From the IMG/VR virus record IMGVR_UViG_2713896900_000010: a stretch of DNA of 16,377 nt; one strand, given 5' to 3'. Shown here one piece after another: positions 904 through 16,377 of the stretch. Source of the DNA: a virus (Duplodnaviria; Heunggongvirae; Uroviricota; Caudoviricetes). The position numbers and the translations under genes are program-made. Positions within the stretch are counted from its first letter, which is position 1. The number at the start of each line of letters is the position of its first letter. The notes beneath the pieces were generated by a model. That model saw only the letters and a program-made list of their open reading frames with translations. It searched no databases and was not told where the DNA came from.

Positions 904-1191
904 ATGAAAAAAATCACTTTTCCCCGTCTTTCCGGTTGGCTGGCTGCAGCCATTGCTCTGATTGCATTGATCGGCTGGACATCTTCAGCACAAATTCCGG
1001 TCGTCATTTATAAACTAAGCCTGGTTTCACTTTCCGCAGTGCTGGGATACTGGCTCGATCGTAGTTTGTTCCCCTGGGCACGGCCTGACTTTTTTTGCCC
1101 CAGGAAGGAACCGCGTTGCTACGCAGCGGCAATGATTCGTCGCGCCATCATCGTGGCTGCAGTCTGCCTTTCCGTCGCGTTAGGGCTATAG
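904..1191 (+). CDS. Putative holin / lysis membrane protein (95 aa, about 3 predicted transmembrane segments)
   Basis: AGGAG 7 nt upstream of ATG; MKK start; three hydrophobic stretches (WLAAAIALIALIGW, IPVVIYKLSLVSLSAVLGYWL, AIIVAAVCLSVALGL); its stop overlaps the start of the downstream endolysin (TAGTGATG). Function inferred from size, topology and position. Confidence 0.5.
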   Translation: MKKITFPRLSGWLAAAIALIALIGWTSSAQIPVVIYKLSLVSLSAVLGYWLDRSLFPWARPDFFCPRKEPRCYAAAMIRRAIIVAAVCLSVALGL

Positions 1192-1193
1192 TG

Positions 1194-1799: not shown

Positions 1800-1811
1800 T
1801 CAGAGGGGCCG

Positions 1812-2126
1812 ATGAAACTCAGTATCGATTTTTGGGAAGTGATCTCCTTTATGCTTTCATTCGTTGGATTAATGTTTGCTGCCGGAAAATTGCTGTTAGC
1901 GCAAATTGAAAAAAGACTTAATGAGCGTTTTGAGTCCCTGGAAAATGCCCGCAGGGAATCAGAAACAAGCTGGTCGAAACTGGAAAGAGAATTTCTCGAA
2001 TTTCGTGCCGAACTTCCACTGTATTATGTCCGCAGAGAGGATTATCTTCGTGGACAAGCAGTATTAGAAGCAAAGCTGGATGCCTTATATAGCAAAATAG
2101 AGTTATTACAACGTGGCAGTTATTAA
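1812..2126 (+). CDS. Lysis-cassette accessory protein; N-terminal transmembrane anchor plus coiled coil (i-spanin-like or releasin-like), 104 aa
   Basis: GAGGGG RBS 4-9 nt upstream; one N-terminal hydrophobic helix (VISFMLSFVGLMFAAGKLLL) followed by a charged heptad-like region; position immediately after the endolysin. Function is an inference. Confidence 0.45.
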   Translation: MKLSIDFWEVISFMLSFVGLMFAAGKLLLAQIEKRLNERFESLENARRESETSWSKLEREFLEFRAELPLYYVRREDYLRGQAVLEAKLDALYSKIELLQRGSY

Positions 2127-2130
2127 ATAC

Positions 2131-2165
2131 ATCCCCACCTTTACGTAAGTGTGGGGATTTTTTAT
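2131..2165 (+). terminator. Rho-independent terminator after the lysis cassette
   Basis: Inverted repeat ATCCCCAC (2131-2138) / GTGGGGAT (2151-2158) followed by a run of six T (2158-2163), 5 nt after the stop codon of the 1812-2126 gene. Confidence 0.6.
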
Positions 2166-2272
2166 AACCATTCAATTTTTTCTCTAAATCACATTAAAAG
2201 ATTCTTCACTCTCACTGCTTCAGAATACATTTCAACGATAACGAAGTGAGCGGTAATTAAGGTACACCTCAT

Positions 2273-2728
2273 ATGAAAATTTTATCTGTAATGAATTATG
2301 TCGTGGTCAGATTACGTGATCGGCATCCTGAAATGGACATATTCATTTCATCTACGGATGCCCAAAAATATATTCCACAGACACAACAGATTACGGTGAT
2401 TATTAATTATAGCGGTTCTGTCTTCACCACGCCCGAAAGTAGTGATGCCATTGTACAACAGCAAATACTCCGCTTAACCGCCACCGTTATTGTTGGCAAA
2501 AATTGTGATGCGTTAAACGCACTTGATCACATACGCAGCGCATTGGGAGGCCTTCAGCCTCCTGATTGCGATCATCTTATTTGGCTTGAAAAAGAAATTA
2601 ATACGGGTGAGAGCGACGGTTTCTGCCGCTACATCCTGGAAATGGCGACCAGCTCGCTGTTTATCGCTGAACAGGACAGCACGGATCTTCCCCTGCTTAC
2701 TGAAGTTAATTACGAGGAAACTGAATGA
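2273..2728 (+). CDS. Hypothetical protein at the head-proximal end of the tail operon (151 aa); possible tail completion / sheath terminator-type protein
   Basis: ATG with AAGG upstream; first gene after the terminator; stop overlaps the next start (ATGA); occupies the position held by small tail-completion genes upstream of the sheath in Mu-type clusters. No motif recognised. Confidence 0.45.
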   Translation: MKILSVMNYVVVRLRDRHPEMDIFISSTDAQKYIPQTQQITVIINYSGSVFTTPESSDAIVQQQILRLTATVIVGKNCDALNALDHIRSALGGLQPPDCDHLIWLEKEINTGESDGFCRYILEMATSSLFIAEQDSTDLPLLTEVNYEETE

Positions 2729-2922
2729 AATATATCTACAACGGTCCGGCAAGCGGCGTCACCCTTGCCGACGGTCAAGAAATCTTATTATGGCCGAACA
2801 GTGAAATTGATCTGCCAGAAGACAATGAGTGGGTTATGACCATGATTGCCCGAAATCACTTGATTCTCATCATTCCCCAGGAAGAACAAAATAACGTAGA
2901 GGAAATTGTACATGGCAGCTAA
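2725..2922 (+). CDS. Small hypothetical protein (65 aa), translationally coupled between the upstream ORF and the sheath gene
   Basis: GAGGAAA RBS, ATGA overlap with the upstream stop, and its own stop overlaps the sheath start region. No recognisable motif. Confidence 0.4.
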   Translation: MKYIYNGPASGVTLADGQEILLWPNSEIDLPEDNEWVMTMIARNHLILIIPQEEQNNVEEIVHGS

Positions 2923-4333
2923 TTATCTGCACGGTGTAGAAACCATTGAAATTGAAACCGGCCCGCGTCCGGTAAAAGCAGTAAAATCTGCTGTAATCGC
3001 TTTAATCGGTACCGCTCCCTGTGGCCCGGTAAACCAACCGACGCTGTGCCTTTCTGAAAGTGACGCGGCACAGTTTGGATCGACTCAGGCTAACTTTACG
3101 ATCCCGCAGGCGCTGAAGGCGATTTATGATCACGGTGCCGGTACAGTGGTGGTAATTAATGTGCTGGATCCAGTAAAACATGGACTACACATTACCAATG
3201 AAACCATTACGTTCAATAGTGACGATAAAGCTAAATTAACTCATCCGGGGGTAAGTTCGGTAACGCTAAGAGCAAGTATCAGTTCCACTACATACAAAAA
3301 TACATCATACAGCGTTAATGCCGCTGACGGCGTTATTACCCGTACAGGAACTGAAATTGCGGCAGGAGCAAAGGTTTACGCGACTTATACCTATGTTGAC
3401 CCTACAAAGGTCACCGCAGCCGATATTATCGGGGCCGTTAATACCGCAGGCGATCGCACGGGGATGAGGCTCCTTCAGGACACTTATAACTTGTATGGTT
3501 TCTACGCCAAAATTCTGCTGGCACCCGTTTTTTGTACGCAAAAATCAGTGACTACCGAGCTGATTGCACAAGCGGAAAAACTCGGTGCGATTACCTACAT
3601 TGATGCCCCAATTGGGACTACATTCCAGCAGGTATTGGCTGGACGCGGTTCGCAAGGCGCAATCAACTTCAATACCAGCTCTGATCGTGCACGTTTATGC
3701 TACCCACACGTCAAAGTTTACGATGGCATCACTAACCAGGAAATTCTTGAACCTCTCTCTTCGCGCGCTGCCGGGCTACGTGCCAAAGTAGACCTCGAAA
3801 AAGGTTTCTGGTGGAGCAACTCAAACCAGGAAATTCAGGGTATTACCGGTATCGAACGTTCGCTTTCCGCAATGATTGATGATCCACAAAGCGAAGTGAA
3901 TCAGCTCAACGAAAACGGTATTACCACTATTTTCAATAGTTATGGTTCTGGTCTGCGCCTGTGGGGCAACCGCACAGCGGCATGGCCAACCGTGACTCAT
4001 ATGCGTAACTTTGAAAACGTTCGCCGGACAGGCGATGTAATTAATGAGTCAATCCGTTATTTCAGTCAACAGTATATTGATATGCCGATCAATCAGGCAC
4101 TGATTGACGCGCTGACCGAATCGGTAAATACCTGGGGCCGAAAACTGATTGCCGACGGCGCACTGCTTGGCTTTGAGTGCTGGTACGATCCGGCGCGAAA
4201 TTCACCGGCTGAACTCAGTGCCGGGCATTTATTGCTCAGCTATAAATTTACCCCACCGCCGCCGCTGGAACGTCTGACGTTTGAAACTGAAATTACCTCT
4301 GAATATTTAGTCTCTCTGGAGAGCAATCGCTAA
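2912..4333 (+). CDS. Contractile tail sheath protein (Mu L / P2 FI-like), about 473 aa
   Basis: Size and position immediately upstream of the tube gene; overall sequence character typical of myovirus sheath proteins. Preferred start is the ATG at 2912 (GAGGAAA 7 nt upstream) rather than the TTG at 2906 reported by the ORF track. Confidence 0.85.
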   Translation: MAANYLHGVETIEIETGPRPVKAVKSAVIALIGTAPCGPVNQPTLCLSESDAAQFGSTQANFTIPQALKAIYDHGAGTVVVINVLDPVKHGLHITNETITFNSDDKAKLTHPGVSSVTLRASISSTTYKNTSYSVNAADGVITRTGTEIAAGAKVYATYTYVDPTKVTAADIIGAVNTAGDRTGMRLLQDTYNLYGFYAKILLAPVFCTQKSVTTELIAQAEKLGAITYIDAPIGTTFQQVLAGRGSQGAINFNTSSDRARLCYPHVKVYDGITNQEILEPLSSRAAGLRAKVDLEKGFWWSNSNQEIQGITGIERSLSAMIDDPQSEVNQLNENGITTIFNSYGSGLRLWGNRTAAWPTVTHMRNFENVRRTGDVINESIRYFSQQYIDMPINQALIDALTESVNTWGRKLIADGALLGFECWYDPARNSPAELSAGHLLLSYKFTPPPPLERLTFETEITSEYLVSLESNR

Positions 4334-4857
4334 TGGCTGGAAAAATTCAAATTAACCGTATTACCAACGCCAATATTTATCTCGATGGTAATAATCTTTT
4401 AGGCCGTGCAACAGAAATTAAATTGCCAGATGTCAGTTTAATTATGCAGGAACATAAAGCACTGGGCATGGTGGGTAAAATAGAACTCCCGGCTGGTTTC
4501 GATAAACTGGAGGGGGAAATTAAATGGAACTCCTTTTACCAGGACGTAATGCGTAAAACGGCAAACCCGTGGCAGGCTGTAGCATTACAGTGTCGCTCCA
4601 GTATCGATTGTTATAACTCTCAGGGGAAAGCGAATCAATTAGCGTTAGTCACACATTTAACCGTGATGTTTAAAAAAAATCCACTGGGCACATTTAAACA
4701 GAATGAAAACCCGGAATTCAGCAGCGCCTTTGGCTGCACTTATATTAAACAAGTAGTCGATGGTGAAACGCTGCTTGAACTGGATTATATGGCGAATATT
4801 TTCCGCGTTAACGGCGTGGATCAATTAAGTACCTATCGCAATAACATCGGTGGCTAA
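4333..4857 (+). CDS. Tail tube protein (Mu M / P2 FII-like), 174 aa
   Basis: TAATG stop/start overlap with the sheath gene; size and position canonical for a tube protein following the sheath. Confidence 0.8.
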   Translation: MAGKIQINRITNANIYLDGNNLLGRATEIKLPDVSLIMQEHKALGMVGKIELPAGFDKLEGEIKWNSFYQDVMRKTANPWQAVALQCRSSIDCYNSQGKANQLALVTHLTVMFKKNPLGTFKQNENPEFSSAFGCTYIKQVVDGETLLELDYMANIFRVNGVDQLSTYRNNIGG

Positions 4858-4861
4858 GTTA

Positions 4862-4881
4862 TTCGGGGCTACGGCCCCGAA
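4862..4881 (+). other. Intercistronic stem-loop between the tube and chaperone genes
   Basis: Perfect 8 bp GC-rich stem TTCGGGGC / GCCCCGAA with a 4 nt loop (TACG), 5 nt after the tube stop codon; no following U-tract, so more likely an mRNA-stability or attenuation element than a full terminator. Confidence 0.5.
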
Positions 4882-4907
4882 CTCCGAAAAATAAATAAGG
4901 ATACAAA

Positions 4908-5225
4908 ATGAAAGAGCATTATATCTTACAGTTTCCCTTTACGTCGGCAGCAGGAAATAATATCGACACGCTACAATTACGTCGCCTGAAAGTCAAAGAT
5001 ATGCGTAATGCACGCCGGGTCAGCGAAAAGCCGGAAGAATGGGATGAACCGCTAATGGCAGCGATGACCGGGCTGGTACCAGAAGATTTAGCTGAAATGG
5101 ATTTGCTGGATTACCAGGCGTTGCAGAAACGATTTCAATCCATGCTTACCGTGGCTACAGAATCCCCCCTTGCTATGGCAGGCAATGGCGCTACTGGCGA
5201 GATGGTTTCGCTTTCCACCCAGTGA
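4908..5225 (+). CDS. Tail assembly chaperone, P2 gpE-like (105 aa)
   Basis: AAGGAT RBS; size and position between tube and tape measure; residue pattern resembles P2 gpE as I recall it. A possible frameshift extension is described in the findings. Confidence 0.6.
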   Translation: MKEHYILQFPFTSAAGNNIDTLQLRRLKVKDMRNARRVSEKPEEWDEPLMAAMTGLVPEDLAEMDLLDYQALQKRFQSMLTVATESPLAMAGNGATGEMVSLSTQ

Positions 5226-5300
5226 GATTGACTCGCTCACGATAGATGACTTTAGTCACTGGCTGGATGAAGCCAGCGCTCAAATAAAAATCGAATATGA

Positions 5301-5323
5301 CTCGCAGACCTGATGTCTGCGAG
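5301..5323 (+). other. Stem-loop in the chaperone to tape-measure spacer
   Basis: Perfect 9 bp inverted repeat CTCGCAGAC / GTCTGCGAG with a 5 nt loop (CTGAT), followed by TTCTTC; the loop contains the stop codon of the +1-frame extension ORF. Confidence 0.45.
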
Positions 5324-5413
5324 TTCTTCAAAGCTCGCCAGGTTTATTTCTTCCCAGCCCATTTTTCAGAAAACTAACCAGCGGGCCATCACCAATCTAT
5401 AAGAGAAACAATT

Positions 5414-7789
5414 TTGGCCAACGATATTATTACCCAGCTTCAGACGCGTAATGAGACGTTGACGCAGGCAATAGCCCGTTACGGCTCACTCAACGCCAGA
5501 ACATTGTTAGCACTCTCTTCTCAGCAAGCGGCAGTAATCAAACTAACGCAGCAACTTGCCGATTCCGCTCTCCGCCTGGAGGAAAATAGCCGAAACCGCG
5601 CTGATCTGATGGAGAAAACCCAAACATTTGCCGGGCAATTTAGCAAAGTATTCAATGTTGAAATCCTTGACTGGAAGTTGCCGTATGAGTTTCAGGACAA
5701 CATGGTCAATTTGGCGACCAAAGGTGGGATGAATGATACAACCCGCGAGACACTCAGCCTTAATCTGCGCGACTGGAGCATGGATTTTAACCAGCAGCAG
5801 ACCACCTTACAGAACGCAGCCCAGGTGCTAATCGAAGGTAATTTGTCGTCGATGCAGGATCTCAACCGTTATATGCCGGAGATCGCCAAAGCGGCCACCA
5901 CCACGCGCGAAAGTGCTGAAACATGGGCGAATGCCGCGCTCGCGACTCATGATCGACTGAATATTGCGCCAGAAAATTTCCACGCCGCGCAAAACATGAT
6001 GTACGGCATTAGCAAAAACGGTGGGCCTACCGTTGCCGGGCAAACACAGTGGATAGACAAATTTGCAGTTAAAACTGGCGCACAGGGTTTAGAAGGTATG
6101 GCTGAACTGACCGCCACAATGCAGATCGCAATGAAAAATGGTGCCAGCGCCAGTGTGGCGGCGGAGAATTTCGACCACTTTCTGCAAACCATCTTTTCGA
6201 AAAAAACCGATAACTGGTTCGTCAGCCAGGGCGTCGATCTGCAAGGCTCTCTGCTTGAACATCAGCAAAACGGCATGGGTGTTAGCGAAGCCATGATTCA
6301 TATCGTGCAAACGCAACTTGAGAAGATGAATCCGGCGATCCTCGACACCTTCAAACGCACCATGCAAATTGAAGATTTATCTGCTCGCAGCAACGCACTG
6401 CAATCGATAGTGACGCAATTTAATCTGGGCGAAATGTTCGGCGATGCGCAAACAGTGGAATTCCTGGCACCTGCGCTGGCGAATATGGAAGAGTATCGCC
6501 AGTTAAAAGCCTCCGCCATGCAAGACAGCGGTAAGAATCTGATTGACAACGATTTTTCTGTGCAGATGGCCTCGCCCATTGAACAAACTAAAACGTTACA
6601 ACTGGCGTTAAATGATTTATGGCTCAGCATTGGCTTGCAATTAATGCCGCTGATTGGCGAGTTGGCGCAAAGCCTTACTCCGGTGATTCGCCAGTTCAGC
6701 GCCTGGCTACGTGAACACCCGGCGCTGGTGCAAAACATTGCGAAAATCGTCGGAGCGATTTGGCTGTTTAACGGCGCACTGAATGTTTTAAAGCTGGGCG
6801 CGAACGTCATCGCCTCGCCGTTTATTCGTCTGGTCGATATCTTCCTGAAAGTCAGGGCAAGTCTGACGCTCACAGGCGCGGCAAGTAAGATGCTATCAGC
6901 GGTTAAGTCATTATATAACGGCGCAAAATGGCTAACGCAACTGCTTGGCCGTGGCCTGATTGGCGCATTGAAACTGGCAGGTCAGACCGTCTTCTGGTTG
7001 GGTAGAGTTTTATTGATGAATCCCATTGGTCTGGTCATCACCGCGATTGCGGGCGCTGCTTATCTGATCTATCGCCACTGGGAACCTATCTCCAGATTCT
7101 TTTCCGCCATCTGGCAACGTATCACCACGGCCTTTGACGGCGGCATTGCAGGGATTTGCCGGTTAATTCTCGACTGGTCGCCGCTGGAGTTGTTCTACAG
7201 CGCCTTTTCCAGTGTGATGAATTGGTTTGGTGTCGAGATGCCTGCAAGTTTTAGCGAGTTCGGCAGCAATCTTCTGGGCAGTCTGGTTGACGGCATAATG
7301 AATGCTTTCCCCGCTCTGAAAGGCATTATTGATCAGGTCAAAAACGCCTTACCGGACTGGCTAAAAACCACGATGGGTATTAGCACAGAAGGATCGGCTA
7401 CGGCTGTTACAAGCACGACGAATACCGCATCAATCTCCCCCACAACCGTTGTTCCAGGCGTTGCCGGAGCGATTTTAACGCCTCCTGTGGGCAAACAACT
7501 CGCGCCATCCAGTAAAACGACAACGTCGCCATCGACACCAGCGGCAAAAAATACAGCCGCCAAACCCGCATCGGCCTCTTTACCTGGTAAATCTGTAACC
7601 AAACCGGCGACGCTCCCCTCCCGTTCCTCTGGAAAAGTTCAGGTGAATTTTTCGCCACAAATTACCGTGCAGAGTAACGGACAAAACACCACTAAAGACA
7701 TTCAGAACGTGTTGACGATAAGTAAACGCGAACTGGAAAGAATGATTAACGACGTAATGGCGCAACAACAGCGCCGGGGGTATGCCTGA
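5414..7789 (+). CDS. Tail tape measure protein (791 aa)
   Basis: Largest gene of the cluster, directly after the chaperone; coiled-coil-rich N-terminal half, hydrophobic segments in the middle/C-terminal part, Ser/Thr/Pro/Ala-rich tract near the C-terminus. The first in-frame start after the upstream stop is a TTG at 5414 with a weak AAGAG motif upstream. Confidence 0.85.
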   Translation: MANDIITQLQTRNETLTQAIARYGSLNARTLLALSSQQAAVIKLTQQLADSALRLEENSRNRADLMEKTQTFAGQFSKVFNVEILDWKLPYEFQDNMVNLATKGGMNDTTRETLSLNLRDWSMDFNQQQTTLQNAAQVLIEGNLSSMQDLNRYMPEIAKAATTTRESAETWANAALATHDRLNIAPENFHAAQNMMYGISKNGGPTVAGQTQWIDKFAVKTGAQGLEGMAELTATMQIAMKNGASASVAAENFDHFLQTIFSKKTDNWFVSQGVDLQGSLLEHQQNGMGVSEAMIHIVQTQLEKMNPAILDTFKRTMQIEDLSARSNALQSIVTQFNLGEMFGDAQTVEFLAPALANMEEYRQLKASAMQDSGKNLIDNDFSVQMASPIEQTKTLQLALNDLWLSIGLQLMPLIGELAQSLTPVIRQFSAWLREHPALVQNIAKIVGAIWLFNGALNVLKLGANVIASPFIRLVDIFLKVRASLTLTGAASKMLSAVKSLYNGAKWLTQLLGRGLIGALKLAGQTVFWLGRVLLMNPIGLVITAIAGAAYLIYRHWEPISRFFSAIWQRITTAFDGGIAGICRLILDWSPLELFYSAFSSVMNWFGVEMPASFSEFGSNLLGSLVDGIMNAFPALKGIIDQVKNALPDWLKTTMGISTEGSATAVTSTTNTASISPTTVVPGVAGAILTPPVGKQLAPSSKTTTSPSTPAAKNTAAKPASASLPGKSVTKPATLPSRSSGKVQVNFSPQITVQSNGQNTTKDIQNVLTISKRELERMINDVMAQQQRRGYA

Positions 7790-8742
7790 TGTATGCCGTT
7801 TTAGGAGAGATTGAATTTAAGGTTGTCACATTCTGGGACGGCTTTAAAAGCACAATGGGCGTGGACTACGCCACACATGCCCGTATAGAAGGCAAACCCG
7901 GCGTGCAGTTTATTGGCGATAAGCTGGATATGCTGGCACTGGAATTTTCCTTGCACAGCCAGTTTTGCCAACCCACAACAGAGCTGAATCGACTGCGTGA
8001 AGCCATGCTTACCCACAAAGCGATGGCTCTGGTGTTTGGCAATGGCGATTATCGCGGCTGGTTTGTGATTACGGAGCTAACCGCCACCCACCAGCACACC
8101 GATCCCTGGGGCAATGTGATTGCTCAAAGCGGAACAATGTCGCTCCAGGAGTACACCGGCGCTCCTAAAAATCCACTCTTGCCCCCGGCAATTACTACCC
8201 AAGACCCGAATATTGACGAAAAGGCGAGCGATTTTCCAGACATGGTGGAGTCCTGGTTTGATCAGATATTGAACGCCATTGAAGAAGGTATGCGTAAGGC
8301 CAAAGAGATGCTCGATGAGCTGACTCAAGCCATTGAAGATATTAAAAAAACGGTGGCAAAAGTGAAAGCACTGGTTAAAGAGGCCAAAGCGTTAAAAGAA
8401 AAGTGTGAAAAGATAATTACGTCGTTGAAAAAGACTATCGACGCCATCGAAACCCTGTTTAAACAGCCCATGGATCTGCAAACGCTGGCAGGACTCCCAA
8501 AAGCGTTGTCGGCGCAGATTAACGCTTTACTGGGTAACATGCCAGGTATCCGGGACTGCGCCAAAGACGCCAGCACGCTGGTTGACCATGCTCAGGCGCT
8601 TTTCGACGACATTACCAACGACATCGCTGAAGCGACGTTCGATAAAGCCGCAACGTTGGTTGAGCAGGCACGAACAACGGTACAACAAACCACTCCCGCA
8701 GTGAGCCAGCTTGCTGCCGCGACCATTACGAGGAGCTGGTGA
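7789..8742 (+). CDS. Tail protein with gpU / Mu N-like N-terminal domain and long alpha-helical C-terminal extension (317 aa)
   Basis: ATGA overlap with the tape-measure stop; N-terminal ~120 aa follows the pattern of P2 gpU-type tail proteins; C-terminal half is Ala/Lys/Glu-rich and heptad-like; occupies the Mu gene N position. Confidence 0.55.
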   Translation: MYAVLGEIEFKVVTFWDGFKSTMGVDYATHARIEGKPGVQFIGDKLDMLALEFSLHSQFCQPTTELNRLREAMLTHKAMALVFGNGDYRGWFVITELTATHQHTDPWGNVIAQSGTMSLQEYTGAPKNPLLPPAITTQDPNIDEKASDFPDMVESWFDQILNAIEEGMRKAKEMLDELTQAIEDIKKTVAKVKALVKEAKALKEKCEKIITSLKKTIDAIETLFKQPMDLQTLAGLPKALSAQINALLGNMPGIRDCAKDASTLVDHAQALFDDITNDIAEATFDKAATLVEQARTTVQQTTPAVSQLAAATITRSW

Positions 8743-8951
8743 TGCGATACCTTGAACATATCACCACCGACGGCGAACGCTGGGATAATCTGGCATGGCA
8801 TTACTACGGCGATGCGCTGGCTTATGAACGCATCATCGCCGCCAATCCACATGTCGCCATTTACCCGGTACTGCCTTCCGGTATTCAACTCATTATTCCG
8901 GTCATTTCCGTCAACAAAACCTTATCGGAGATACCACCATGGCTGAGATAA
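8742..8951 (+). CDS. Tail protein X-like (LysM-like, P2 gpX family), 69 aa
   Basis: ATG at 8742 overlapping the upstream stop, AGGAG 6 nt upstream; the motif LEHITTDGERWDNLAWHYYGD...IIAANPHV resembles the gpX LysM-like signature; sits just before the gpD-like gene as in P2/Mu-type clusters. Confidence 0.65.
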   Translation: MRYLEHITTDGERWDNLAWHYYGDALAYERIIAANPHVAIYPVLPSGIQLIIPVISVNKTLSEIPPWLR

Positions 8952-9979
8952 GCGTATCTGGTGGCGTCTTTGCCACACTCGCGCCCATTTTTACCCTTTG
9001 GTATGGACATAAAGATATCACTTATGACATCACGCCCTATGTCACCAGCATCAGTTACCACGACAGCATCAAAAACGAGTCAGATACCATCGCCATTACA
9101 CTGGATGACACCGATGGACGTTGGATAAAAGAGTGGTATCCCGGCAAAGGCGATACGCTGGCGCTGCATATGGGTTATCAGGGGGAGACGCTCCTCGATT
9201 GCGGTCAGTATATTATTGATAAAATTGATATTTCAGCACCACCTTCCACGGTAAATATTGATGGCATTGCCACTTCCGTCAATCAGGCGCTGCGTACCCG
9301 TAACAGTCAGGGCTTTGAAGAAACGACGCTTTCGGCCATCGCCAGTCGTATCGCGCAAACTCACGGTCTGAAGCTGGTGGGCAAAATCGAGCCGCTGGCG
9401 ATTGACCGGGTGACACAGTACGGCGAAACCGATGTTGGATTTCTCAAGCGTCTGGCCAGCGAATATGGCTATGCCGTGAAAGTGACGACAAAAGAGCTAA
9501 TTTTTTCACATCTGCCGACACTACGCTGCCTGGCGCCAGTGAAAACCATCGACCGCAAAGAGGTTTCGCACTTTACCTTCAAAGACACCATTAATCGCAT
9601 CTACAAGAACGCCACCGTACAGCATCAAAATAGTAAGAAAAAAGAACTGGTTATCTACACTCACGACAGCCAGCAAAAACCGTCAGCCCGTGGAGTCGGC
9701 ACCAGTGCCGACACGTTGAAACTCAACAGCCGGGCGACGGATGTTGGCGCGGCACAGGCAAAGGCCAACGCTGCACTCGACAGCCACAACGAATATCAGC
9801 AAACCGGAACACTCAGGATGATGGGCTGCCCGGAACTGACAACAGGCAATAAAATCGAACTCATTGATTTTGGTATTCTTTCTGGACAATGGCTGATTGA
9901 TAAATCTACTCACAGTTTTGTGCGCAGCGGCTATACCACTGAAATCGACGTTTCGCGCGGGCCAGCAACCAGCCAGTAA
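8939..9979 (+). CDS. Baseplate hub protein, P2 gpD / Mu P-like (346 aa)
   Basis: Size, position after gpU/gpX-like genes, GGAG RBS; overall pattern consistent with late control gene D family tail proteins. Confidence 0.8.
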   Translation: MAEISVSGGVFATLAPIFTLWYGHKDITYDITPYVTSISYHDSIKNESDTIAITLDDTDGRWIKEWYPGKGDTLALHMGYQGETLLDCGQYIIDKIDISAPPSTVNIDGIATSVNQALRTRNSQGFEETTLSAIASRIAQTHGLKLVGKIEPLAIDRVTQYGETDVGFLKRLASEYGYAVKVTTKELIFSHLPTLRCLAPVKTIDRKEVSHFTFKDTINRIYKNATVQHQNSKKKELVIYTHDSQQKPSARGVGTSADTLKLNSRATDVGAAQAKANAALDSHNEYQQTGTLRMMGCPELTTGNKIELIDFGILSGQWLIDKSTHSFVRSGYTTEIDVSRGPATSQ

Positions 9980-9988
9980 GGAGGCACT

Positions 9989-10648
9989 ATGAAGGGAGTA
10001 ACCCGGCAAACGGGGATTATCAGCGATATTGACGAAACCAGCGTTCGGGTGCGAGTCACACTGCCAGAGTGCGACAATCTGAAGAGTAACTGGCTTGCGG
10101 TACTTCAACGTAATTCCCAGGACAATAAAGACTACTGGCTACCGGATATGGGTGAGCAGGTGGAAGTTCTGCTGGACGACAACGGCGAAGATGGCGTGGT
10201 ACTTGGGGCCGTTTATTCTACGGTTGACACCGCGCCTGTGGCCTCGCGAGATAAACGTTACGTCCAGTTTTCTGATGGCGCAGCGTTTGAATATGACCGC
10301 AGCACACACCAGCTTACGATTAACGGCGGTATTGAGAAAATCGTGATTGAGGTTATTGACCGTACTAACCTGACATCACCCAACGTTGAGGTTAAAGCCC
10401 AACAAGTCACCGTGACTTCCGATACCGTCGATATTAAAGCGGCGACAGTGACGGTAGATGCGCCCATGAGCACCTTTACTGGTAACGTCACGGTAATGAA
10501 AAAACTCACCTGGCTGGGTGGCATGGCAGGAAGTGGAGGCATCGGTAACGCCGCCACGATAACTGGCAATGTCAACGTGATTGGTAACGTTCAGGCCAGC
10601 GGCACATTGCAGGATAGCGGTGGTAACTCAAATCACCATTCACACTAG
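9989..10648 (+). CDS. Baseplate central spike, P2 gpV / Mu gp45-like (219 aa)
   Basis: Strong AAGGAGG RBS; N-terminal OB-fold-like region followed by repetitive beta-strand-rich Val/Thr segment (VTVTSDTVDIKAATVTVDAP...) and a C-terminal His cluster (NHHSH) typical of spike apexes. Confidence 0.8.
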   Translation: MKGVTRQTGIISDIDETSVRVRVTLPECDNLKSNWLAVLQRNSQDNKDYWLPDMGEQVEVLLDDNGEDGVVLGAVYSTVDTAPVASRDKRYVQFSDGAAFEYDRSTHQLTINGGIEKIVIEVIDRTNLTSPNVEVKAQQVTVTSDTVDIKAATVTVDAPMSTFTGNVTVMKKLTWLGGMAGSGGIGNAATITGNVNVIGNVQASGTLQDSGGNSNHHSH

Positions 10649-10653
10649 CTTTT

Positions 10654-10684
10654 AACCCGCCTGATGGCGGGTTTTCTCTTTTTA
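10654..10684 (+). terminator. Rho-independent terminator inside the baseplate module
   Basis: Stem AACCCGCC (10654-10661) / GGCGGGTT (10666-10673), loop TGAT, followed by TTCTCTTTTT; 6 nt after the spike gene stop. Confidence 0.7.
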
Positions 10685-10746
10685 ATCAATCAGTTTTCTA
10701 AATCGCTTTAATATCCCCACTGTCCGTTCAGGGCGAAAATAAGCAC

Positions 10747-11106
10747 ATGAACACAAAAACACGCCCCTCAACGCTGCACTGGCAACCCGCCTTGCAGCGG
10801 CCTGAAGAATACGTCTGCGGACTGGATGATATTCACCAGGCAATACACATCATTCTGCGCACGCCGCGCGGCAGTGATCCCCACAGACCGCTGTTTGGCA
10901 GCAACTTGTGGCACTACATCGATTACCCCATCGAGCGGGCAATCCCGCATGTGGTACGGGAGTCGATGGAAGCCATCCGCCAGTGGGAACCGCGATGTCG
11001 GTTGCTGAAGGTAGCACCGATAATCGACGGTGAACATCTGACGTTACGTGTGCAATGGCGCGCCGCTGACGGCGTAATCAACTCAACGGAGGTGTTATGG
11101 CGATAG
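10747..11106 (+). CDS. Baseplate wedge protein, gpW / gp25-like (119 aa)
   Basis: Size and position before the J-like gene; product overlaps the downstream start by 10 nt. Confidence 0.75.
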   Translation: MNTKTRPSTLHWQPALQRPEEYVCGLDDIHQAIHIILRTPRGSDPHRPLFGSNLWHYIDYPIERAIPHVVRESMEAIRQWEPRCRLLKVAPIIDGEHLTLRVQWRAADGVINSTEVLWR

Positions 11107-12212
11107 CCGAACCCAATTTTATTGACCGCGATCCTGCGCAAATTACCAGCGAGATGATTGCGCAATACGAAGATGCCAGCGGTAAAAAACTCTATCCGGC
11201 ACAGGCCGAACGGTTACTCATCGACCTGTTTGCCTATCGTGAAAACCTTGTGCGCATCGCCATTCAGGAAGCGGCGAAACAAAACCTGGTCGCGTATTCC
11301 CGCGCACCAATGTTGGATTATTTAGGGGAGCTGGTGGGTGTTCACCGTTTACCTGCGCAACCGGCAAAAACGACGTTGCAGTTTTCGGTCGTCAGTGCGT
11401 ATACCAGCAATATCCTGATTCCCCAGGGGACGCGGGCCAGTGCCTCTGACAGCGTGATGTTCGCCACCGATGAAGATGTTCTGCTTCCGGCCAGGAGTTT
11501 GCATATCGCCGTTCCGGCCACCAGCCTCGCAGCAGGTGAACAGGGCAATGGCTGGCAGCCTGCACAGATTAGCGCCCTTGTTGACAGGATCGGTTATTAC
11601 GATATCAACGTGACTAATCTGACTCCCACAACCGGCGGTTGTGGTGAAGAGAACGATGATGCACTACGCCAGCGTATACAACTGGCGCCAGAAAGCTTCA
11701 GTAATGCCGGCAGCTATGGCGCATATCGCTTTCATACACTTTCGGTTAGCCAGTCAATTATTGACGTTGCAGTACTGGGGCCAGATGAAGGGTTGCCAGA
11801 AGGCTGCGTCGAGCTCTACCCGCTAACCCTGAATGGTCTGCCGGGAACCGAGCTACTCGCGCAAATTGAACAAGAAGTGAGTAAAGAGAAAAAACGTCCG
11901 CTGACTGACAAAGTAAGTGCGAAATGTGCTCTTAGGGTGCCGTATGAAATTCGTGCGCAGCTAACGCTGTTTACCACCGCCGATCAGGAGACAACACTGG
12001 CTGCGGCGCGTAAAGCGATTAGCCTCTGGACGCAACAGCGGCAGAAACATCTGGGGCAGGACATTGTGCCAAACCAGATAATCAAAGTGTTACAAGTCGA
12101 TGGTGTCTATGACGTTGTGCTGAACATGCCTACAAAACGTATTTTGCAGGCGCATGAATGGGCGGAATGCACTGTAATAGACGTCACGATTGCCGGAGTC
12201 AGCGATGGATAA
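11097..12212 (+). CDS. Baseplate J-like protein (P2 gpJ / Mu gp47-like), 371 aa
   Basis: GGAGGTG RBS; size and position canonical for the baseplate J family; overlaps the downstream start. Confidence 0.8.
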   Translation: MAIAEPNFIDRDPAQITSEMIAQYEDASGKKLYPAQAERLLIDLFAYRENLVRIAIQEAAKQNLVAYSRAPMLDYLGELVGVHRLPAQPAKTTLQFSVVSAYTSNILIPQGTRASASDSVMFATDEDVLLPARSLHIAVPATSLAAGEQGNGWQPAQISALVDRIGYYDINVTNLTPTTGGCGEENDDALRQRIQLAPESFSNAGSYGAYRFHTLSVSQSIIDVAVLGPDEGLPEGCVELYPLTLNGLPGTELLAQIEQEVSKEKKRPLTDKVSAKCALRVPYEIRAQLTLFTTADQETTLAAARKAISLWTQQRQKHLGQDIVPNQIIKVLQVDGVYDVVLNMPTKRILQAHEWAECTVIDVTIAGVSDG

Positions 12213-12837
12213 ATTGCTGCCACCGCCGCCGCTTGCCAGCGATGAGCGTTTTTCAACTCTGGCAAATATCGCCGCCGAACGTTTTGCGCAACTCGATCTG
12301 ACGGCATTAATGATATACCTGGTCGACCTGGTTGATGCTTCGGCATTACCTGCCCTTGCAGAACAATTTCACGTTCAGGGGCTGGAAGGTTGGTTATTTA
12401 CTACTGATGAACAAGAGAAGCGTGAGTTAATTAAGCGAGCCATTGAGTTACATAAATATAAAGGAACAGTTTGGGCGGTACGGCGAGTACTGGAAATACT
12501 CTCATTGCCTGGAACTATTGCCGAATGGTTTGAATATGGCGGGAAAGCTTATTTTTTTAAGGTTGATATAGAACTGGTGGATAAAGGCATGGATGAAAAC
12601 CTTTTCAATGAGTTAGTTGAACTCATTCATGAATATAAAAACACACGTTCAAAACTGGAAGCATTAATCGTCTGGATCATTAACCAAAGTGCTATCCCTG
12701 TTATTAGCTGTGCGCTTTATGGGGGTGAACTGACGACGCTTTTACCTTTCCAGATACGGGAAGTACAACAAAACACAACAATCTTTTACGGAACAGGGCA
12801 ATGGAGCCTTGAAATTACATCTATTTACCCGGAGTAA
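12190..12837 (+). CDS. Baseplate/tail protein I-like (P2 gpI / Mu gp48-like), 215 aa
   Basis: Follows the J-like gene with overlapping coupling and precedes the tail fiber gene, the conserved J-I-H order. Confidence 0.7.
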   Translation: MPESAMDKLLPPPPLASDERFSTLANIAAERFAQLDLTALMIYLVDLVDASALPALAEQFHVQGLEGWLFTTDEQEKRELIKRAIELHKYKGTVWAVRRVLEILSLPGTIAEWFEYGGKAYFFKVDIELVDKGMDENLFNELVELIHEYKNTRSKLEALIVWIINQSAIPVISCALYGGELTTLLPFQIREVQQNTTIFYGTGQWSLEITSIYPE

Positions 12838-12839
12838 TT

Positions 12840-14498
12840 ATGGATAATGAGTTTTATACCCTCCTGACCGACAGGGGGATGGCAAAAATTGCCAGTGCTC
12901 TTGCGGATAAAAAACAACTACATCTGCAAAAGATGGCCGTTGGAGACGGCGGTGGGCAATATTACGAACCCTCGGCGAGTCAAGCAAAATTACGTCATGA
13001 AGTATGGCGTGGTGAGTTAAATACATTAACAGTTGCACCCAGTAATCCTAACTGGTTAATTGCGGAACTTGTACTGCCCGAAAATATCGGCGGCTGGTAT
13101 GTACGTGAAGTCGGCGTTTTTGATACTGACGGCGAACTTATTGCTATCGGTAAATTCCCAGAATCGTATAAACCGCTATTACCCGGCGGCAGCGGTAAGC
13201 AAGTTTGCATTCGTCTCATTATGGAAGTTTCCAACACGACTGCGGTAACACTCACCGTTGATCCCAGTATTGTACTGGCAACACGTGATTATGTTGATTC
13301 ACAACTGGATAAACATGCACGTTCGACTAATCATCCTGATGCTACGTTAATGCAAAAAGGCTTTACGCAGTTGAGTAACGCCACTGACAGTGATGACGAA
13401 ACTAAAGCGGCTACGTCAAAAGCGGTAAAAGCGGCGATGATTGAGGCACGAAACCATCGTCATACCTGGAGTCAAATTACTGATATTCCAGATGGTACGC
13501 TGACTCAAAAAGGAATTGTGAAGCTAAATAACGCGACCAATAGCACCAGCACGACGGAGGCAGCGACACCGAGCGCGGTTAAGGCGGCGTATGACCTGGC
13601 AAATGGTAAAGCTGCAGGCAGTCATACGCATCCCTGGGGGCAGATTACGGGTATTCAGGATGGCACCCTGACGCAAAAAGGGATTGTGAAGCTGAATAAT
13701 GCGACGGACAGCAACAGCACGACGGAGGCAGCCACGCCGAGTGCGGTTAAGGCGGCAATGGATAAGGCTAATGCTGCAGCTCCGGCTAATCATACTCACA
13801 CTAGTTTTTATACTACAAATGGAACATTTACAGTTCCTGATGGCGTAACTACATTATTTGTGGAAGTTATGGGCGGCGGCGGTGGTGGTGCCGGAGGAGC
13901 ACAATCATCATATTATGAAGCATGTGGTGGCAATACAGGTGAATTGCTCGTTGGTTACTTAAACGTGGAACCAAGCCAGCATTTTTCAGTAAAGGTTGGG
14001 GCTGGAGGTAATGGAGGTCCATTTTGGAATAATCCACCTGTTTCACAAGTAAAGTATTCATCGGATAACACAGAGAAAACACAAAAAAGCTTTGATGGTG
14101 GTGACTCTTCATTTTCTAATATGATTGCCAAAGGAGGTCATGGGGGATATAACATTTATCACTTTAACACTACGCAGCCTTGTATAAAATTCATTGACCA
14201 TCCAAATACTTATGCACCTGGCGCAATACGGTTATATGCAGAATTTTATCCTGGCAAGAATGGTGAAAATTCCATATATGGAAAAGGAGGGAGCGCTGGC
14301 ACTGTTATTACAGAATATCTGGATAATGGTGGAAGTAAGGCAATAATGACACATCCGACACCAGCAATAGGCTATGGTTCTGGAGGAGCGGGAGGATCTT
14401 ATTTGCCTCCTTTTGAATATGACAATAATGAATTAACAAACTTAGGCAATACTAGCGGAACAAAAGGTGCCTCTGGTTTCGTAAAAATATCATGGTAA
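12840..14498 (+). CDS. Tail fiber protein (552 aa) with conserved N-terminal domain, tandem shaft repeats and Gly-rich low-GC C-terminal receptor-binding region
   Basis: N-terminus (MDNEFYTLLTDRGMAKIASALA...WLIAELVLPENIGGWYVREVGVFDTDGELIAIGKFP) is the conserved baseplate-attachment domain of Mu S / P2 H / lambda Stf-type fibers; three tandem repeats with the motif TLTQKGIVKLNNAT...AATPSAVKAA; C-terminal ~230 aa rich in Gly motifs. Confidence 0.85.
   Translation: MDNEFYTLLTDRGMAKIASALADKKQLHLQKMAVGDGGGQYYEPSASQAKLRHEVWRGELNTLTVAPSNPNWLIAELVLPENIGGWYVREVGVFDTDGELIAIGKFPESYKPLLPGGSGKQVCIRLIMEVSNTTAVTLTVDPSIVLATRDYVDSQLDKHARSTNHPDATLMQKGFTQLSNATDSDDETKAATSKAVKAAMIEARNHRHTWSQITDIPDGTLTQKGIVKLNNATNSTSTTEAATPSAVKAAYDLANGKAAGSHTHPWGQITGIQDGTLTQKGIVKLNNATDSNSTTEAATPSAVKAAMDKANAAAPANHTHTSFYTTNGTFTVPDGVTTLFVEVMGGGGGGAGGAQSSYYEACGGNTGELLVGYLNVEPSQHFSVKVGAGGNGGPFWNNPPVSQVKYSSDNTEKTQKSFDGGDSSFSNMIAKGGHGGYNIYHFNTTQPCIKFIDHPNTYAPGAIRLYAEFYPGKNGENSIYGKGGSAGTVITEYLDNGGSKAIMTHPTPAIGYGSGGAGGSYLPPFEYDNNELTNLGNTSGTKGASGFVKISW
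13314..13790 (+). repeat. Three tandem ~55 aa / ~165 bp repeats within the tail fiber shaft
   Basis: Protein repeats ending at HRHTW / HTHPW / HTHT; the DNA of units 2 and 3 (about 13501-13590 versus 13669-13758) is roughly 85% identical. Confidence 0.6.
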
Positions 14499-14504
14499 TT
14501 AAAA

Positions 14505-15119
14505 ATGACAAAATATGCATGTTTTGATCCTGAAACATTTGTTGTTTTGGACTGGTTCGATACAGAACGTTACAACTATCCCAAAGTAGAACATTTAGTT
14601 GAAATAACTGATCAGCAATGGCAGATATATGCAAGAGATAATATTCCAACTTGGATTAACTGTGAAGATTTATCCTTCATTTCTATGCCACCACCAGATA
14701 AATTTCACAAACTGAAAAAAGGAGAATGGATAGTTGATACAGATTCAATACTTAAATTTATTTCAGAAATAAAAGAAGATATAATAAGAAGAGTAAAATC
14801 CAAACGAGATTACATCACAACCGATTACATCATCCTCAACGGCCATCACTTCCACAGTGATACAAATAGCCGAATCCAACAACTCTCACTCACAAAAATG
14901 GGAGCCGAAAAACAAATTCCGCCAGGTTTAATGTGGAAAACTAAAAATAACGGTCTGATTGAGTTAACCAATGAAATCGCCGCCCAGTTTGAATCCGTCA
15001 CCATGGCTCACGATATGCGCCTGTTTGCCAACGCCCAGCGCCATATTACGGCGGTGGAAGCTCTGGGCGATATTCAGGCGGTGCTCGACTACGACTACTC
15101 CACAGGCTGGCAACCATGA
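14505..15119 (+). CDS. Tail fiber assembly protein (Tfa/U-like chaperone), 204 aa
   Basis: Immediately downstream of the fiber gene; C-terminal half (higher GC) resembles the conserved Tfa domain ending ...DYDYSTGWQP; N-terminal half is low-GC like the fiber C-terminus. Confidence 0.7.
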   Translation: MTKYACFDPETFVVLDWFDTERYNYPKVEHLVEITDQQWQIYARDNIPTWINCEDLSFISMPPPDKFHKLKKGEWIVDTDSILKFISEIKEDIIRRVKSKRDYITTDYIILNGHHFHSDTNSRIQQLSLTKMGAEKQIPPGLMWKTKNNGLIELTNEIAAQFESVTMAHDMRLFANAQRHITAVEALGDIQAVLDYDYSTGWQP

Positions 15120-15571
15120 GTAAAACCACTGTCTGGCTCGCTTGCTATAAAGGCAGAACAGAGCACCGAGGTATTGCGCAACTAGCTGACTGGCTTACCC
15201 GTAAAATCACACGCGGCAGTTATTCCCACTGCGAGTTAGCAGTGGTACATGGTGAAAAAAATTACCTTTGCTACTCTGCATCACTGCGCGATCGCGGTGT
15301 ACGCGGAAAGATAATGCCACTACCGTCAGATAAGTGGGATATGCTGCCGCTCCAGGCTAGCTTTCAGGATGTGGAAGCTTTTTTCCATAAACATAATGGC
15401 AAAAAATACGACTGGCGCGGAGCCTTAGGAATTATCACTGGCAATAAAGAACAGCGCAATCGTCTGTTTTGCAGTGAATTTTGCGCCGAGTTTCTGCAGT
15501 TAAAAGAGAGTTGGCGCTATTCCCCAAACCATTTGTATGCTTTAGTCAGCAGTTGGCAATATCAGCCGTAA
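15116..15571 (+). CDS. Hypothetical Cys/His-rich protein (151 aa), translationally coupled to tfa; possibly a permuted papain-fold (NlpC/P60-like, YaeF/YiiX-type) enzyme
   Basis: ATGA overlap with the tfa stop; the motifs SHCELAVVHG and LFCSEFCAEF put a His upstream of a C-terminal Cys as in permuted NlpC/P60 amidases. Family assignment is tentative and from recall. Confidence 0.45.
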   Translation: MSKTTVWLACYKGRTEHRGIAQLADWLTRKITRGSYSHCELAVVHGEKNYLCYSASLRDRGVRGKIMPLPSDKWDMLPLQASFQDVEAFFHKHNGKKYDWRGALGIITGNKEQRNRLFCSEFCAEFLQLKESWRYSPNHLYALVSSWQYQP

Positions 15572-15576
15572 AATAA

Positions 15577-15597
15577 CGCCGGGCTTTACGCCCGGCG
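15577..15597. terminator. Bidirectional terminator-like hairpin between convergent genes
   Basis: Stem CGCCGGGC (15577-15584) / GCCCGGCG (15590-15597), loop TTTAC; the minus-strand side is followed by a U-rich tract (TTATTTTAC); the stop codon of the minus-strand gene lies in the loop. Confidence 0.55.
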
Positions 15598-16377
15598 CAT
15601 TACCGTTTGATACAACACCCCATCCAGCTCACTGGCATCTCCGTCCCTGCTATCCGGTAACATGGGAGGGAGCTCACCGCGCACCAGTTCCGTACTAATA
15701 AACACATGCAACAAAGGACGACGCGGACCATATTCCGCTTCACCCGCACGCTGTTTACATTCCAGCAACTCGTCTATTTCTGCGCGTAACGGCGCATCAA
15801 GTCCGCTTCCCGCCAGTAATTCGGCAAACCGCATTGGCGGTACACCTTTACCCGCTTCAACCCAACGCACAGCCAGCAGTGGCCGCAGCACGTAAAAGTA
15901 TTTTTTCAGCCAAACTACGTTGCCCTGCAAATAACCGCGAAAATTTTTCCGCGCCATCGAATAATAATGCCAACGCGCGCGCAGCGGAGAAAACCACTTC
16001 GGCACCATTGCCTTAAGCGCCGTTATCGTTTCTTCATCTTGTTGATAGACCACCGGAGAATCCAGCCATTCAATCAGCGTCGGATTCGCGTCTTTCAGTA
16101 ATCCCAGCGCCTTGCGCCACTCCCAGCCTGAAACATCTAACTCGTCGTCAATAGGCAACTCAATAACATCGCGCGGCGCCTCCACCCGCAGATACCATTC
16201 CGGCGGATGAACATACAAGAACCGCACATCGTAGTCGCTGTCGGGTGAGGCAAATCCCCAACCGCGACTCCCCGATTCACTCGCATACAACACTTTCACA
16301 TCATACCGCCGTTCAATTTCTTTTAACTGCTGCGATACCCGTTCGTGCATCGCAACACTGACTCCATTTAATGGCAT
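15586..16377 (-). CDS. Pol-beta-superfamily nucleotidyltransferase (263 aa)
   Basis: N-terminal active-site signature GS-x10-DxD (ESGSRGWGFASPDSDYDV) typical of the polymerase-beta nucleotidyltransferase fold, followed by a ~170 aa helical C-terminal domain. Its start codon coincides with the window edge, so the true N-terminus and upstream partner genes cannot be verified. Confidence 0.65.
   Translation of the reverse strand: MPLNGVSVAMHERVSQQLKEIERRYDVKVLYASESGSRGWGFASPDSDYDVRFLYVHPPEWYLRVEAPRDVIELPIDDELDVSGWEWRKALGLLKDANPTLIEWLDSPVVYQQDEETITALKAMVPKWFSPLRARWHYYSMARKNFRGYLQGNVVWLKKYFYVLRPLLAVRWVEAGKGVPPMRFAELLAGSGLDAPLRAEIDELLECKQRAGEAEYGPRRPLLHVFISTELVRGELPPMLPDSRDGDASELDGVLYQTVMRRA

Follow-up and report, generated by a model that had tools for sequence, protein, structure and literature searches.

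A predicted YiiX-like permuted NlpC/P60 enzyme encoded directly behind the tail-fibre chaperone in a Mu-like tail-only gene cluster

The 16,377-nucleotide stretch of viral DNA analysed here (Caudoviricetes; IMG/VR record IMGVR_UViG_2713896900_000010; hereafter the window) carries a Mu-like tail-only cluster whose last conserved gene encodes a 151-residue protein that we term PPNE. Profile and fold comparisons place PPNE, as a predicted relative of the bacterial YiiX-like enzymes, within the permuted NlpC/P60 group, and its gene is paired with that of a tail-fibre chaperone across the loci that we sampled. The best explanation of these findings is that PPNE is a soluble cysteine enzyme, made in the cytoplasm, that serves as an accessory in temperate Mu-like, P2-like and some siphoviral phages and in a domesticated tail cluster. 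The more specific reading, that as an accessory enzyme of the fibre/chaperone module it acts late and helps to produce functional fibres or particles, has in our judgement an even chance of being right. The gene, its partner and the codons on which the assignment turns are listed here.

15116-15571, + strand: PPNE gene, YiiX-like permuted NlpC/P60 protein; ATG start, 151 aa, TAA stop; Salmonella orthologue STM4198
15116-15119, + strand: ATGA start/stop overlap of the PPNE gene with the chaperone gene (ATG 15116-15118, TGA 15117-15119)
14505-15119, + strand: upstream DUF4376 tail-fibre chaperone (tfa-like), 204 aa; Pfam DUF4376 E=1.1e-12; PHROG 1807/2837
15221-15235, + strand: codons for Y36-S37-H38-C39-E40, invariant in 62 homologues; H38 is the predicted catalytic His
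15275-15310, + strand: codons for S54-A55-S56 and R58-D59-R60-G61-V62-R63-G64-K65; S56 or S54 is the candidate third active-site residue
15407-15409, + strand: codon for Y98, invariant; predicted NlpC/P60 signature tyrosine at the oxyanion-hole position
15467-15478, + strand: codons for F118-C119-S120-E121; C119, with which a helix begins, is the predicted nucleophile

The initial annotation had likened the arrangement of two strings in PPNE, SHCELAVVHG and LFCSEFC, to that of permuted papain-fold NlpC/P60 enzymes. Both strings are in the protein, at residues 37-46 and 117-123, and the His-then-Cys order is borne out by profile comparisons. Single sequences were too weak for these (E=1.6 with phmmer against the PDB; 8.6% probability with hhalign against YiiX alone), and profiles were needed. 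Searched against PDB sequences, the family profile matched 3kw0 (Bacillus cereus BcPPNE) with E=4.6e-4 and 2if6 (Escherichia coli YiiX) with E=1, the latter with the YSH and CSE motifs in register. Profile-profile comparison with a YiiX-family alignment gave 85% probability (E=6e-6, 97 columns) and paired H38, Y98 and C119 of PPNE with His49, Tyr115 and Cys128 of YiiX, which are that enzyme's catalytic histidine, signature tyrosine and nucleophile (Xu et al. 2011, PMC3142127). H38 is also aligned with His49 of BcPPNE. The GKKYDW segment of PPNE aligns with GKPYDF of YiiX, which holds Tyr115, and FCSE aligns both with YCSE of YiiX, which holds Cys128, and with ICSEF of BcPPNE. His38 thus precedes Cys119, which is the circularly permuted order. 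A further segment, SxRDGGVR, is aligned with ESVEDDGVR of 3kw0 and resembles the lysine-binding SVEDDGVR of BcPPNE.

The predicted structure agrees with this assignment. Its fold is papain-like, with the histidine on a beta-sheet and the cysteine at the N-terminus of a helix: in the model, strand 38-45 begins with H38 and helix 119-126 opens with C119. A fold search with this model matched papain-like proteins only, YiiX and BcPPNE among them, and no crotonase. For the third active-site residue, Glu64 of YiiX falls on S54 in the profile-profile comparison and on position 55 in the 3kw0 profile alignment, and the hairpin register of the model would pair H38 with the invariant S56, and E40 with S54. 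Serine, or the invariant E40, may stand in as the third member of the triad in this model; work on LRAT suggests that this residue is perhaps dispensable (PMC3142127).

We found 91 homologues in a word-indexed search and aligned 62 of them. Y36, S37, H38, C39, E40, S56, V62, R63, K65, W74, Y98, C119, S120 and P137 are invariant (62/62), D59 and F118 are each kept in 61 homologues, E121 in 59 and S54 in 58. Distant relatives read YSHVE, so that Glu rather than Cys is the family hallmark after the histidine. PPNE had also been described as Cys/His-rich; with five cysteines and six histidines in 151 residues it is moderately so, and among these only H38, C39 and C119 are invariant. C52 and C123 are present in 55/62 and 53/62 homologues, and H45, the second histidine of the SHCELAVVHG motif, in 7/62. 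The protein is basic and hydrophilic (17.65 kDa, pI 9.4), and we saw no membrane-spanning stretch or signal-peptide-like segment in it, the N-terminus forming a predicted beta-strand at residues 6-11. With no export signal, PPNE would be made and folded in the cytoplasm alongside the fibres and their chaperone. A lipoprotein reading of the segment WLAC (residues 7-10) was rejected: Cys10 is present in only 5/62 homologues, and no signal peptide precedes the segment, which is predicted to form a beta-strand. A domain scan of longer family members found no informative fused domain.

Curated family collections do not capture PPNE. Scans against Pfam and NCBIfam gave no family match, and PF05708 (Peptidase_C92), the family of YiiX, did not match even at E<=1. 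In a Pfam scan at E<=10, a single one of the 62 relatives matched C92 (E=0.073), while E. coli YiiX itself scores E=2.9e-49; neither PPNE nor any of the relatives matched Pfam NLPC_P60 or CHAP. By sequence, then, PPNE belongs to a separate, uncurated sister family within the permuted NlpC/P60 group and is not a member of Pfam C92; the kinship that Pfam misses is found by profile-profile comparison. The family is large: an exhaustive profile search returned 4520 clusters (50% identity) at E<=1e-3 and 1949 at E<=1e-10. PPNE does match PHROG 1128 (E=1.6e-57), with residues 1-150 on profile positions 20-174; the profile has 381 positions although the domain spans just this part, and it is filed under 'moron, auxiliary metabolic gene and host takeover'. 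The 'enoyl-CoA hydratase' label on PHROG 1128 and on GenBank records is an annotation error. That PPNE could be an enoyl-CoA hydratase or a carnitine racemase, as many database records have it, is scarcely credible: the idea is carried by names only, those of PHROG 1128 and of several GenBank records (SuMu, RP12 and Pm86), whereas no Pfam crotonase (ECH) match occurs in PPNE or its relatives, and the predicted papain-like sheet and helix, with no crotonase among the fold matches, refute it at the level of the fold. HHpred on a member from an Alicyclobacillus phage likewise gave cysteine peptidases and phospholipases (bioRxiv 10.1101/2025.06.28.662109). The literature searched gave no work on the function of phage genes called 'carnithine racemase-like' or of an NlpC/P60 gene next to tfa.

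We examined the neighbourhood of the PPNE gene in 80 loci, taken from one-genome-per-species contigs of Enterobacteriaceae, Pasteurellaceae, Neisseriaceae and Moraxellaceae. The usual order is a baseplate gene, a long fibre gene, a gene for a protein of 200-250 aa and then the PPNE gene, whose start overlaps the upstream stop by 1-19 nt in 59 of the 73 loci that have an upstream open reading frame (ORF). The upstream protein is of the DUF4376 type (PHROG 2837) in 49/65 cases and/or of the classical tfa type (PHROG 105) in 26/65, and nearly every locus has one or other of these types there. DUF4376 proteins have been shown by experiment to be tail-fibre chaperones in the Alteromonas phages V22 and A5 (PMC10579305). 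In the reverse direction, a search with a chaperone alignment found the PPNE gene directly downstream in 70 of 78 evaluable IMG/VR loci; the sample leans towards the chaperone subfamily on which that alignment was based. What follows the PPNE gene differs from locus to locus: Mu-like phages have a D12 methylase gene there, at their right end, P2-like prophages have the tail sheath gene, and RlaP or another gene of the host is found elsewhere. Haemophilus phage SuMu, Pseudomonas siphophage pAN and Moraxella Mcat2 show the same placement behind the chaperone gene; classical Mu and P2 have no PPNE match in the phage collection at E<=1e-5. Overall, the pairing with the chaperone gene is conserved in both directions and the downstream neighbour is not. 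We found no description, in the literature searched, of this pairing or of the retention of PPNE in the Salmonella and E. coli tail-only cluster. The chaperones that precede the PPNE gene share an invariant C-terminal YD[YF]SxGW motif (residues 196-202 in the window) as well as R101, A177 and H180.

In the window, the late tail operon ends with the PPNE gene. The gene had been said to overlap the stop of a tfa-like gene and so to be co-expressed with the tail genes; the overlap is confirmed and co-expression is supported: the upstream gene is the DUF4376 chaperone, its stop codon is overlapped, we saw no sigma-70-like site on the + strand upstream of the PPNE gene, and the only strong hairpin in our promoter and terminator scan around the gene comes after its stop. 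The ATGA overlap indicates operon membership and, probably, translational coupling. The hairpin starts 5 nt past the PPNE stop, scores as a - strand terminator, and is probably the end of the late tail transcript. The GC content of the PPNE gene is 46.7%, against a cluster mean of 47.7%. The fibre and the hairpin lie as follows.

12840-14498, + strand: tail fibre, 552 aa; Pfam PF12571, PF03406 and PF21722 (collar N-domain, fibre repeats, glycine-rich C-domain)
15576-15598, no strand assigned: GC-rich hairpin where the PPNE and RlaP genes converge; 9-bp stem, 8 GC pairs

The same 151-aa PPNE protein, identical in every residue, is on record in many assemblies and beside two different fibre/chaperone cassettes. 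One is the cassette of the window, with its 552-aa fibre and 204-aa chaperone; the second has a 498-aa fibre with an unrelated C-end and a chaperone that is only 54% identical. The swapped cassette, at about 13800-15030, comprises the C-end of the fibre and ~500 nt from the start of the chaperone gene. The breakpoint, at about 15000-15030, falls within that gene, and the DNA downstream of the breakpoint is 97-100% identical. Upon cassette exchange the last ~30 chaperone codons remain linked to the PPNE gene. The half of the chaperone gene that encodes the N-terminus is an insert of low GC content (30.7%, against 47.7% for the cluster). The PPNE gene is thus a constant part of the cluster and does not belong to the specificity cassette. 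This constancy argues against receptor-matched immunity or masking and against recognition of the variable fibre tip. It also means that any contact of PPNE with chaperone or fibre would have to use conserved parts, such as the last ~30 residues of the chaperone.

The cluster as a whole encodes a contractile tail and its lysis functions, and has these outer landmarks.

1-15571, + strand: Mu-like tail-only (tailocin-like) cluster with PPNE as the last conserved gene, defined by ORFs and by the E. coli D7 and Salmonella orthologues
1-348, - strand: Mor-type activator gene, from the ORF listing
1194-1799: SLT-type lysin, from ORFs and the E. coli D7 orthologue

Its content is Mor, holin, SLT-type lysin, a protein with a transmembrane (TM) segment and a coiled coil, sheath, tube, tape measure, baseplate, fibre, chaperone and PPNE; genes for a head, packaging and replication and an integrase are absent from the window, and the orthologous cluster of E. 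coli D7 likewise has none for head, packaging, replication or integration. In E. coli D7 the orthologous cluster sits directly between lysC and RlaP-slipin-yjbD, and orthologues of the PPNE gene occupy the same chromosomal place in Salmonella, Superficieibacter and Phytobacter. The counterpart in Salmonella LT2 is STM4198-STM4219, in which STM4198 is the PPNE orthologue; in the literature searched we found no functional study of the tail cluster or of STM4198. Among 5426 complete E. coli genomes, the sheath-tube segment occurs in 196, and the PPNE gene likewise in 196 (3.6%). Comparison of PPNE with its E. coli D7 orthologue gives dN 0.029, dS 0.64 and dN/dS 0.05, and the tail genes range from 0.03 to 0.15; purifying selection on the PPNE gene is as strong as on the structural tail genes. 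The 91 homologues, the 4520 profile-matched clusters and this dN/dS value show that the PPNE gene is real and no chance ORF.

Related stretches that can be compared with window 1-15571 are L001 3413-19172 and L165 1-18456, the latter from Salmonella Infantis SARB27. Several features of the cluster beside PPNE were also noted. In Salmonella (SARB27, L165 10748-13583) the run of baseplate genes is interrupted after gpV and before gpW by an O-antigen glucosylation operon of gtrA, gtrB and a gtrC-like gene (STM4206-4204); this insert is absent from the window and from E. coli. The lysis cassette of the window holds at 1812-2272 an i-spanin-like protein of 104 aa with a TM segment and a coiled coil; as a candidate o-spanin, we found no ORF with a lipobox either embedded in this gene or after it. 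A 78-aa ORF with a TTG start lies at 418-654, between Mor and the holin. At 4908-5414 the tail-assembly-chaperone gene is followed by a 190-nt gap, a possible site, by analogy with other contractile tails, for a frameshifted second chaperone product. The right flank (15586-16377, - strand) differs among strains with an identical PPNE protein (loci L167-L170), and holds either an RlaP nucleotidyltransferase gene with a Band_7/slipin gene or a 242-aa ORF with a GT4 glycosyltransferase gene; RlaP alone matches in 1629 E. coli genomes.

How might PPNE act? Characterised permuted NlpC/P60 enzymes use a Cys-His dyad and an acyl-thioester on fatty-acyl or similar acyl bonds (PMC3142127, PMC7387801, PMC12994826, PMC10318531). 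By the chemistry of the family (PMC3142127, PMC7387801, PMC12994826), His38 would activate Cys119, which would attack an acyl carbonyl to form a thioester intermediate, with Tyr98 stabilising the oxyanion; the acyl group would then pass to water, in a hydrolase, or to an amine or hydroxyl, in a transferase. By homology this group would most likely be a fatty acyl, since the crystal structure of YiiX holds a fatty acid in the S1 pocket and that of BcPPNE a lysine in S1' (PMC3142127); PPNE retains the SH and D-G-V-R elements of the BcPPNE S1' site. We propose that PPNE and the chaperone would work together at a late stage in the producer cell. The target of PPNE would be the fibre/chaperone complex or a lipid encountered by this complex, and PPNE would, for example, add an acyl group to the fibre tip or chaperone cap or remove one; it would have no role in the immunity of a lysogen. 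Among the three functions that the initial annotation had offered, a fibre-associated enzymatic accessory is the one that fits best. A more remarkable reading is that PPNE is a lipid-chemistry enzyme dedicated to tail fibres, which either acylates or deacylates the tip or cap with a fatty acyl group in the producer or is carried by the fibre/chaperone to the target cell and, upon binding, cleaves an acyl chain of its outer-membrane lipids; we regard it as speculative and rather doubtful.

Several points tell against an accessory role in the fibre/chaperone module. Our search of the literature found no experiment on any member of the family. The third catalytic position of PPNE is Ser where the family has Glu. 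Start/stop overlaps are the rule throughout the tail operon, with at least 8 other junctions that also overlap by ORF coordinates, so that the ATGA alone is no proof of a special tie to the chaperone, nor coupling alone of a partnership. Identical PPNE proteins lie beside chaperones that are 54% identical and fibres with unrelated C-ends. In the Ralstonia jumbo phage RP12 the PPNE gene is isolated, away from the tail genes, and a Phytobacter locus keeps it with the chaperone gene gone; both cases fit a target other than the chaperone. At this locus, in Phytobacter massiliensis (L005 4256-6456), the fibre gene stops 71 nt before the intact PPNE gene, and the last few chaperone-derived bases remain ahead of its ATG.

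The RP12 and Phytobacter loci also speak for a late enzyme that is independent of the fibre and directed at the host, attacking a lipid or an acylated molecule of the producer cell. Such an enzyme could possibly aid envelope breakdown or particle release, or lessen re-adsorption to debris and siblings through receptor modification and exclusion, and its place beside the host-range module would be mere gene order, as for T5 llp or phi80 cor. It would remain unchanged upon a fibre cassette swap, as PPNE does; relatives act on membrane lipids (PMC12994826, PMC7387801); and in a cluster without a recognisable o-spanin an extra outer-membrane-disrupting activity is conceivable. A late cytoplasmic enzyme could not, however, be expected to remodel outer-membrane lipopolysaccharide (LPS) that has already been exported; PPNE lacks a separate promoter from which a lysogen could express it, and it has no match to PADLOC defence models at E<=0.01; and phages with normal lysis cassettes carry it, its only constant neighbour being the chaperone and not the lysis genes. 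We consider this explanation rather unlikely. Alternatively, PPNE could leave the cell on the chaperone cap or fibre tip and deacylate or cleave lipid A, a phospholipid or a lipoprotein anchor of the target, which would aid irreversible binding or penetration in a manner like that of type VI secretion system (T6SS) effectors. Tox-Act1, of the same permuted group, is a proven phospholipase (PMC12994826); Mu Tfa remains on the fibre tip, and DUF4376 chaperones have been proposed as transient caps (PMC10579305); the position behind the chaperone is conserved, and the gene is kept in a tail-only, killing-type cluster. Set against this, a homologue is not among the 32 virion proteins of jumbo phage RP31, the only usable virion proteome of a phage with a homologue, and a weak point as the homologue is distant and low-abundance proteins may be missed; five cysteines with a free catalytic thiol would be more typical of a cytoplasmic protein; and identical PPNE adjoins different chaperone alleles. 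We found no proteomic record of PPNE in any particle; the SuMu paper does not mention the protein, nor does the Moraxella prophage paper. We therefore judge a particle-borne PPNE unlikely.

Two further readings from the initial annotation, a moron and a specificity-matched self-protection factor, are disfavoured. The latter conflicts with the identical PPNE beside two different fibre/chaperone cassettes. A lysogenic-conversion moron, or a selfish passenger in a cargo slot after the fibre genes, would have no role in particle production; consistent with this, the gene of P2-like prophages lies between tfa and sheath, that is in the Z/fun position, the PHROG category is that of morons, the classical Mu and P2 have no match, and the hairpin after the stop, the sole feature of the locus to fit the moron pattern, is shared. 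The gene nevertheless lacks its own promoter and terminator, starts within the upstream gene in most loci, has the GC content of its cluster, co-occurs with it one to one in E. coli (196/196) under strong purifying selection, and is carried by ~90% of the sampled chaperone loci, which makes a moron quite improbable. Phage tails often bear wall hydrolases, and PPNE belongs to the NlpC/P60 superfamily, so that a role as a classical amidase or endopeptidase of peptidoglycan, in lysis or in digesting the wall locally as the tail penetrates, also has to be considered. It is highly improbable: the topology is permuted, with His before Cys, the reverse of the canonical order; there is no Pfam likeness to canonical P60 or CHAP domains and no signal sequence, SAR domain or wall-binding domain; the cluster already encodes its SLT-type lysin; and characterised members of the permuted group act on acyl, lipid and ubiquitin-like substrates and not on murein (PMC3142127, PMC12994826, PMC10318531).

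Tail-fibre modules are the part that is re-engineered for host range in phages and tailocins, and they are usually seen as a fibre plus a chaperone. Our analysis ties a third, predicted enzymatic gene to this module. Its family numbers thousands of sequence clusters, yet we found no study of it, Pfam has no entry for it and its name in databases is wrong. If PPNE does modify the fibre or the target envelope, its omission could explain why transplanted fibre cassettes fail, and the phage proteins would offer, in model organisms, a tractable read-out for the poorly understood bacterial YiiX-like enzymes. Should it indeed be a lipid enzyme dedicated to fibres, phage tail fibres and tailocins would have in it their first 'effector-like' accessory that is an enzyme, a counterpart on free particles of the T6SS effectors TseH and Tox-Act1.

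Gene order invites comparison with P2 Z/fun, which lies between G and FI, and with T5 llp and phi80/N15 cor, which lie beside receptor-binding genes. Like PPNE, these follow directly after a fibre or host-range module. Their products are exclusion proteins or lipoproteins, small and without enzymatic activity, that are made early or in the lysogen, whereas PPNE is a predicted cytoplasmic enzyme without its own promoter and stays constant despite changes of fibre specificity.

The closest known proteins are YiiX (2IF6) and BcPPNE (3KW0) of MEROPS C92 and PF05708, similarly small, single-domain proteins that have been read as lipid amidases (PMC3142127, PMC10318531). They share with PPNE the His...Tyr...Cys order and the motifs YSH, GKxYD, CSE and DGVR. 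PPNE is shorter, at 151 aa against 190-202 aa; the catalytic His is followed by an invariant C-E where YiiX has x-G, with an invariant Gly; Glu64 of the YiiX triad is replaced by Ser; and PPNE does not have the hydrophobic N-terminal stretch of YiiX. The genes differ in setting too, YiiX being part of a housekeeping locus, rpmE-yiiX-metJ, and PPNE being linked to phages and tails. The T6SS effectors TseH (6V98) and Tox-Act1 are likewise encoded with a contractile phage-tail-like machine and are permuted NlpC/P60 toxins that target lipids; Tox-Act1 is a phospholipase that requires its His and Cys (PMC12994826). Their structural match to PPNE is far weaker than that of YiiX. They have immunity genes and delivery domains or adaptors, and we saw no immunity-like partner at PPNE loci; they are delivered by the T6SS, and delivery of PPNE by a tail or fibre is conjecture. 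A third group comprises the LRAT/PLAAT (HRASLS) acyltransferase-phospholipases and the picornavirus 2A H-box/NC proteins, with a Cys-thioester acyl-enzyme mechanism (PMC7387801, PMC3142127): LRAT/PLAAT proteins read NCEHF where PPNE reads FCSEF, PPNE has no C-terminal membrane anchor, and identity is only 10-12%. Finally, LnsA, which N-acylates lipoproteins in Staphylococcus aureus, and RID of MARTX, an Nε-fatty-acyltransferase acting on lysine, would be like PPNE by chemistry; LnsA is a secreted protein that depends on LnsB, its partner in the membrane, and RID is a domain of a large toxin. Both show that this fold can modify proteins, which is the chemistry that we propose for PPNE on a fibre or chaperone substrate.

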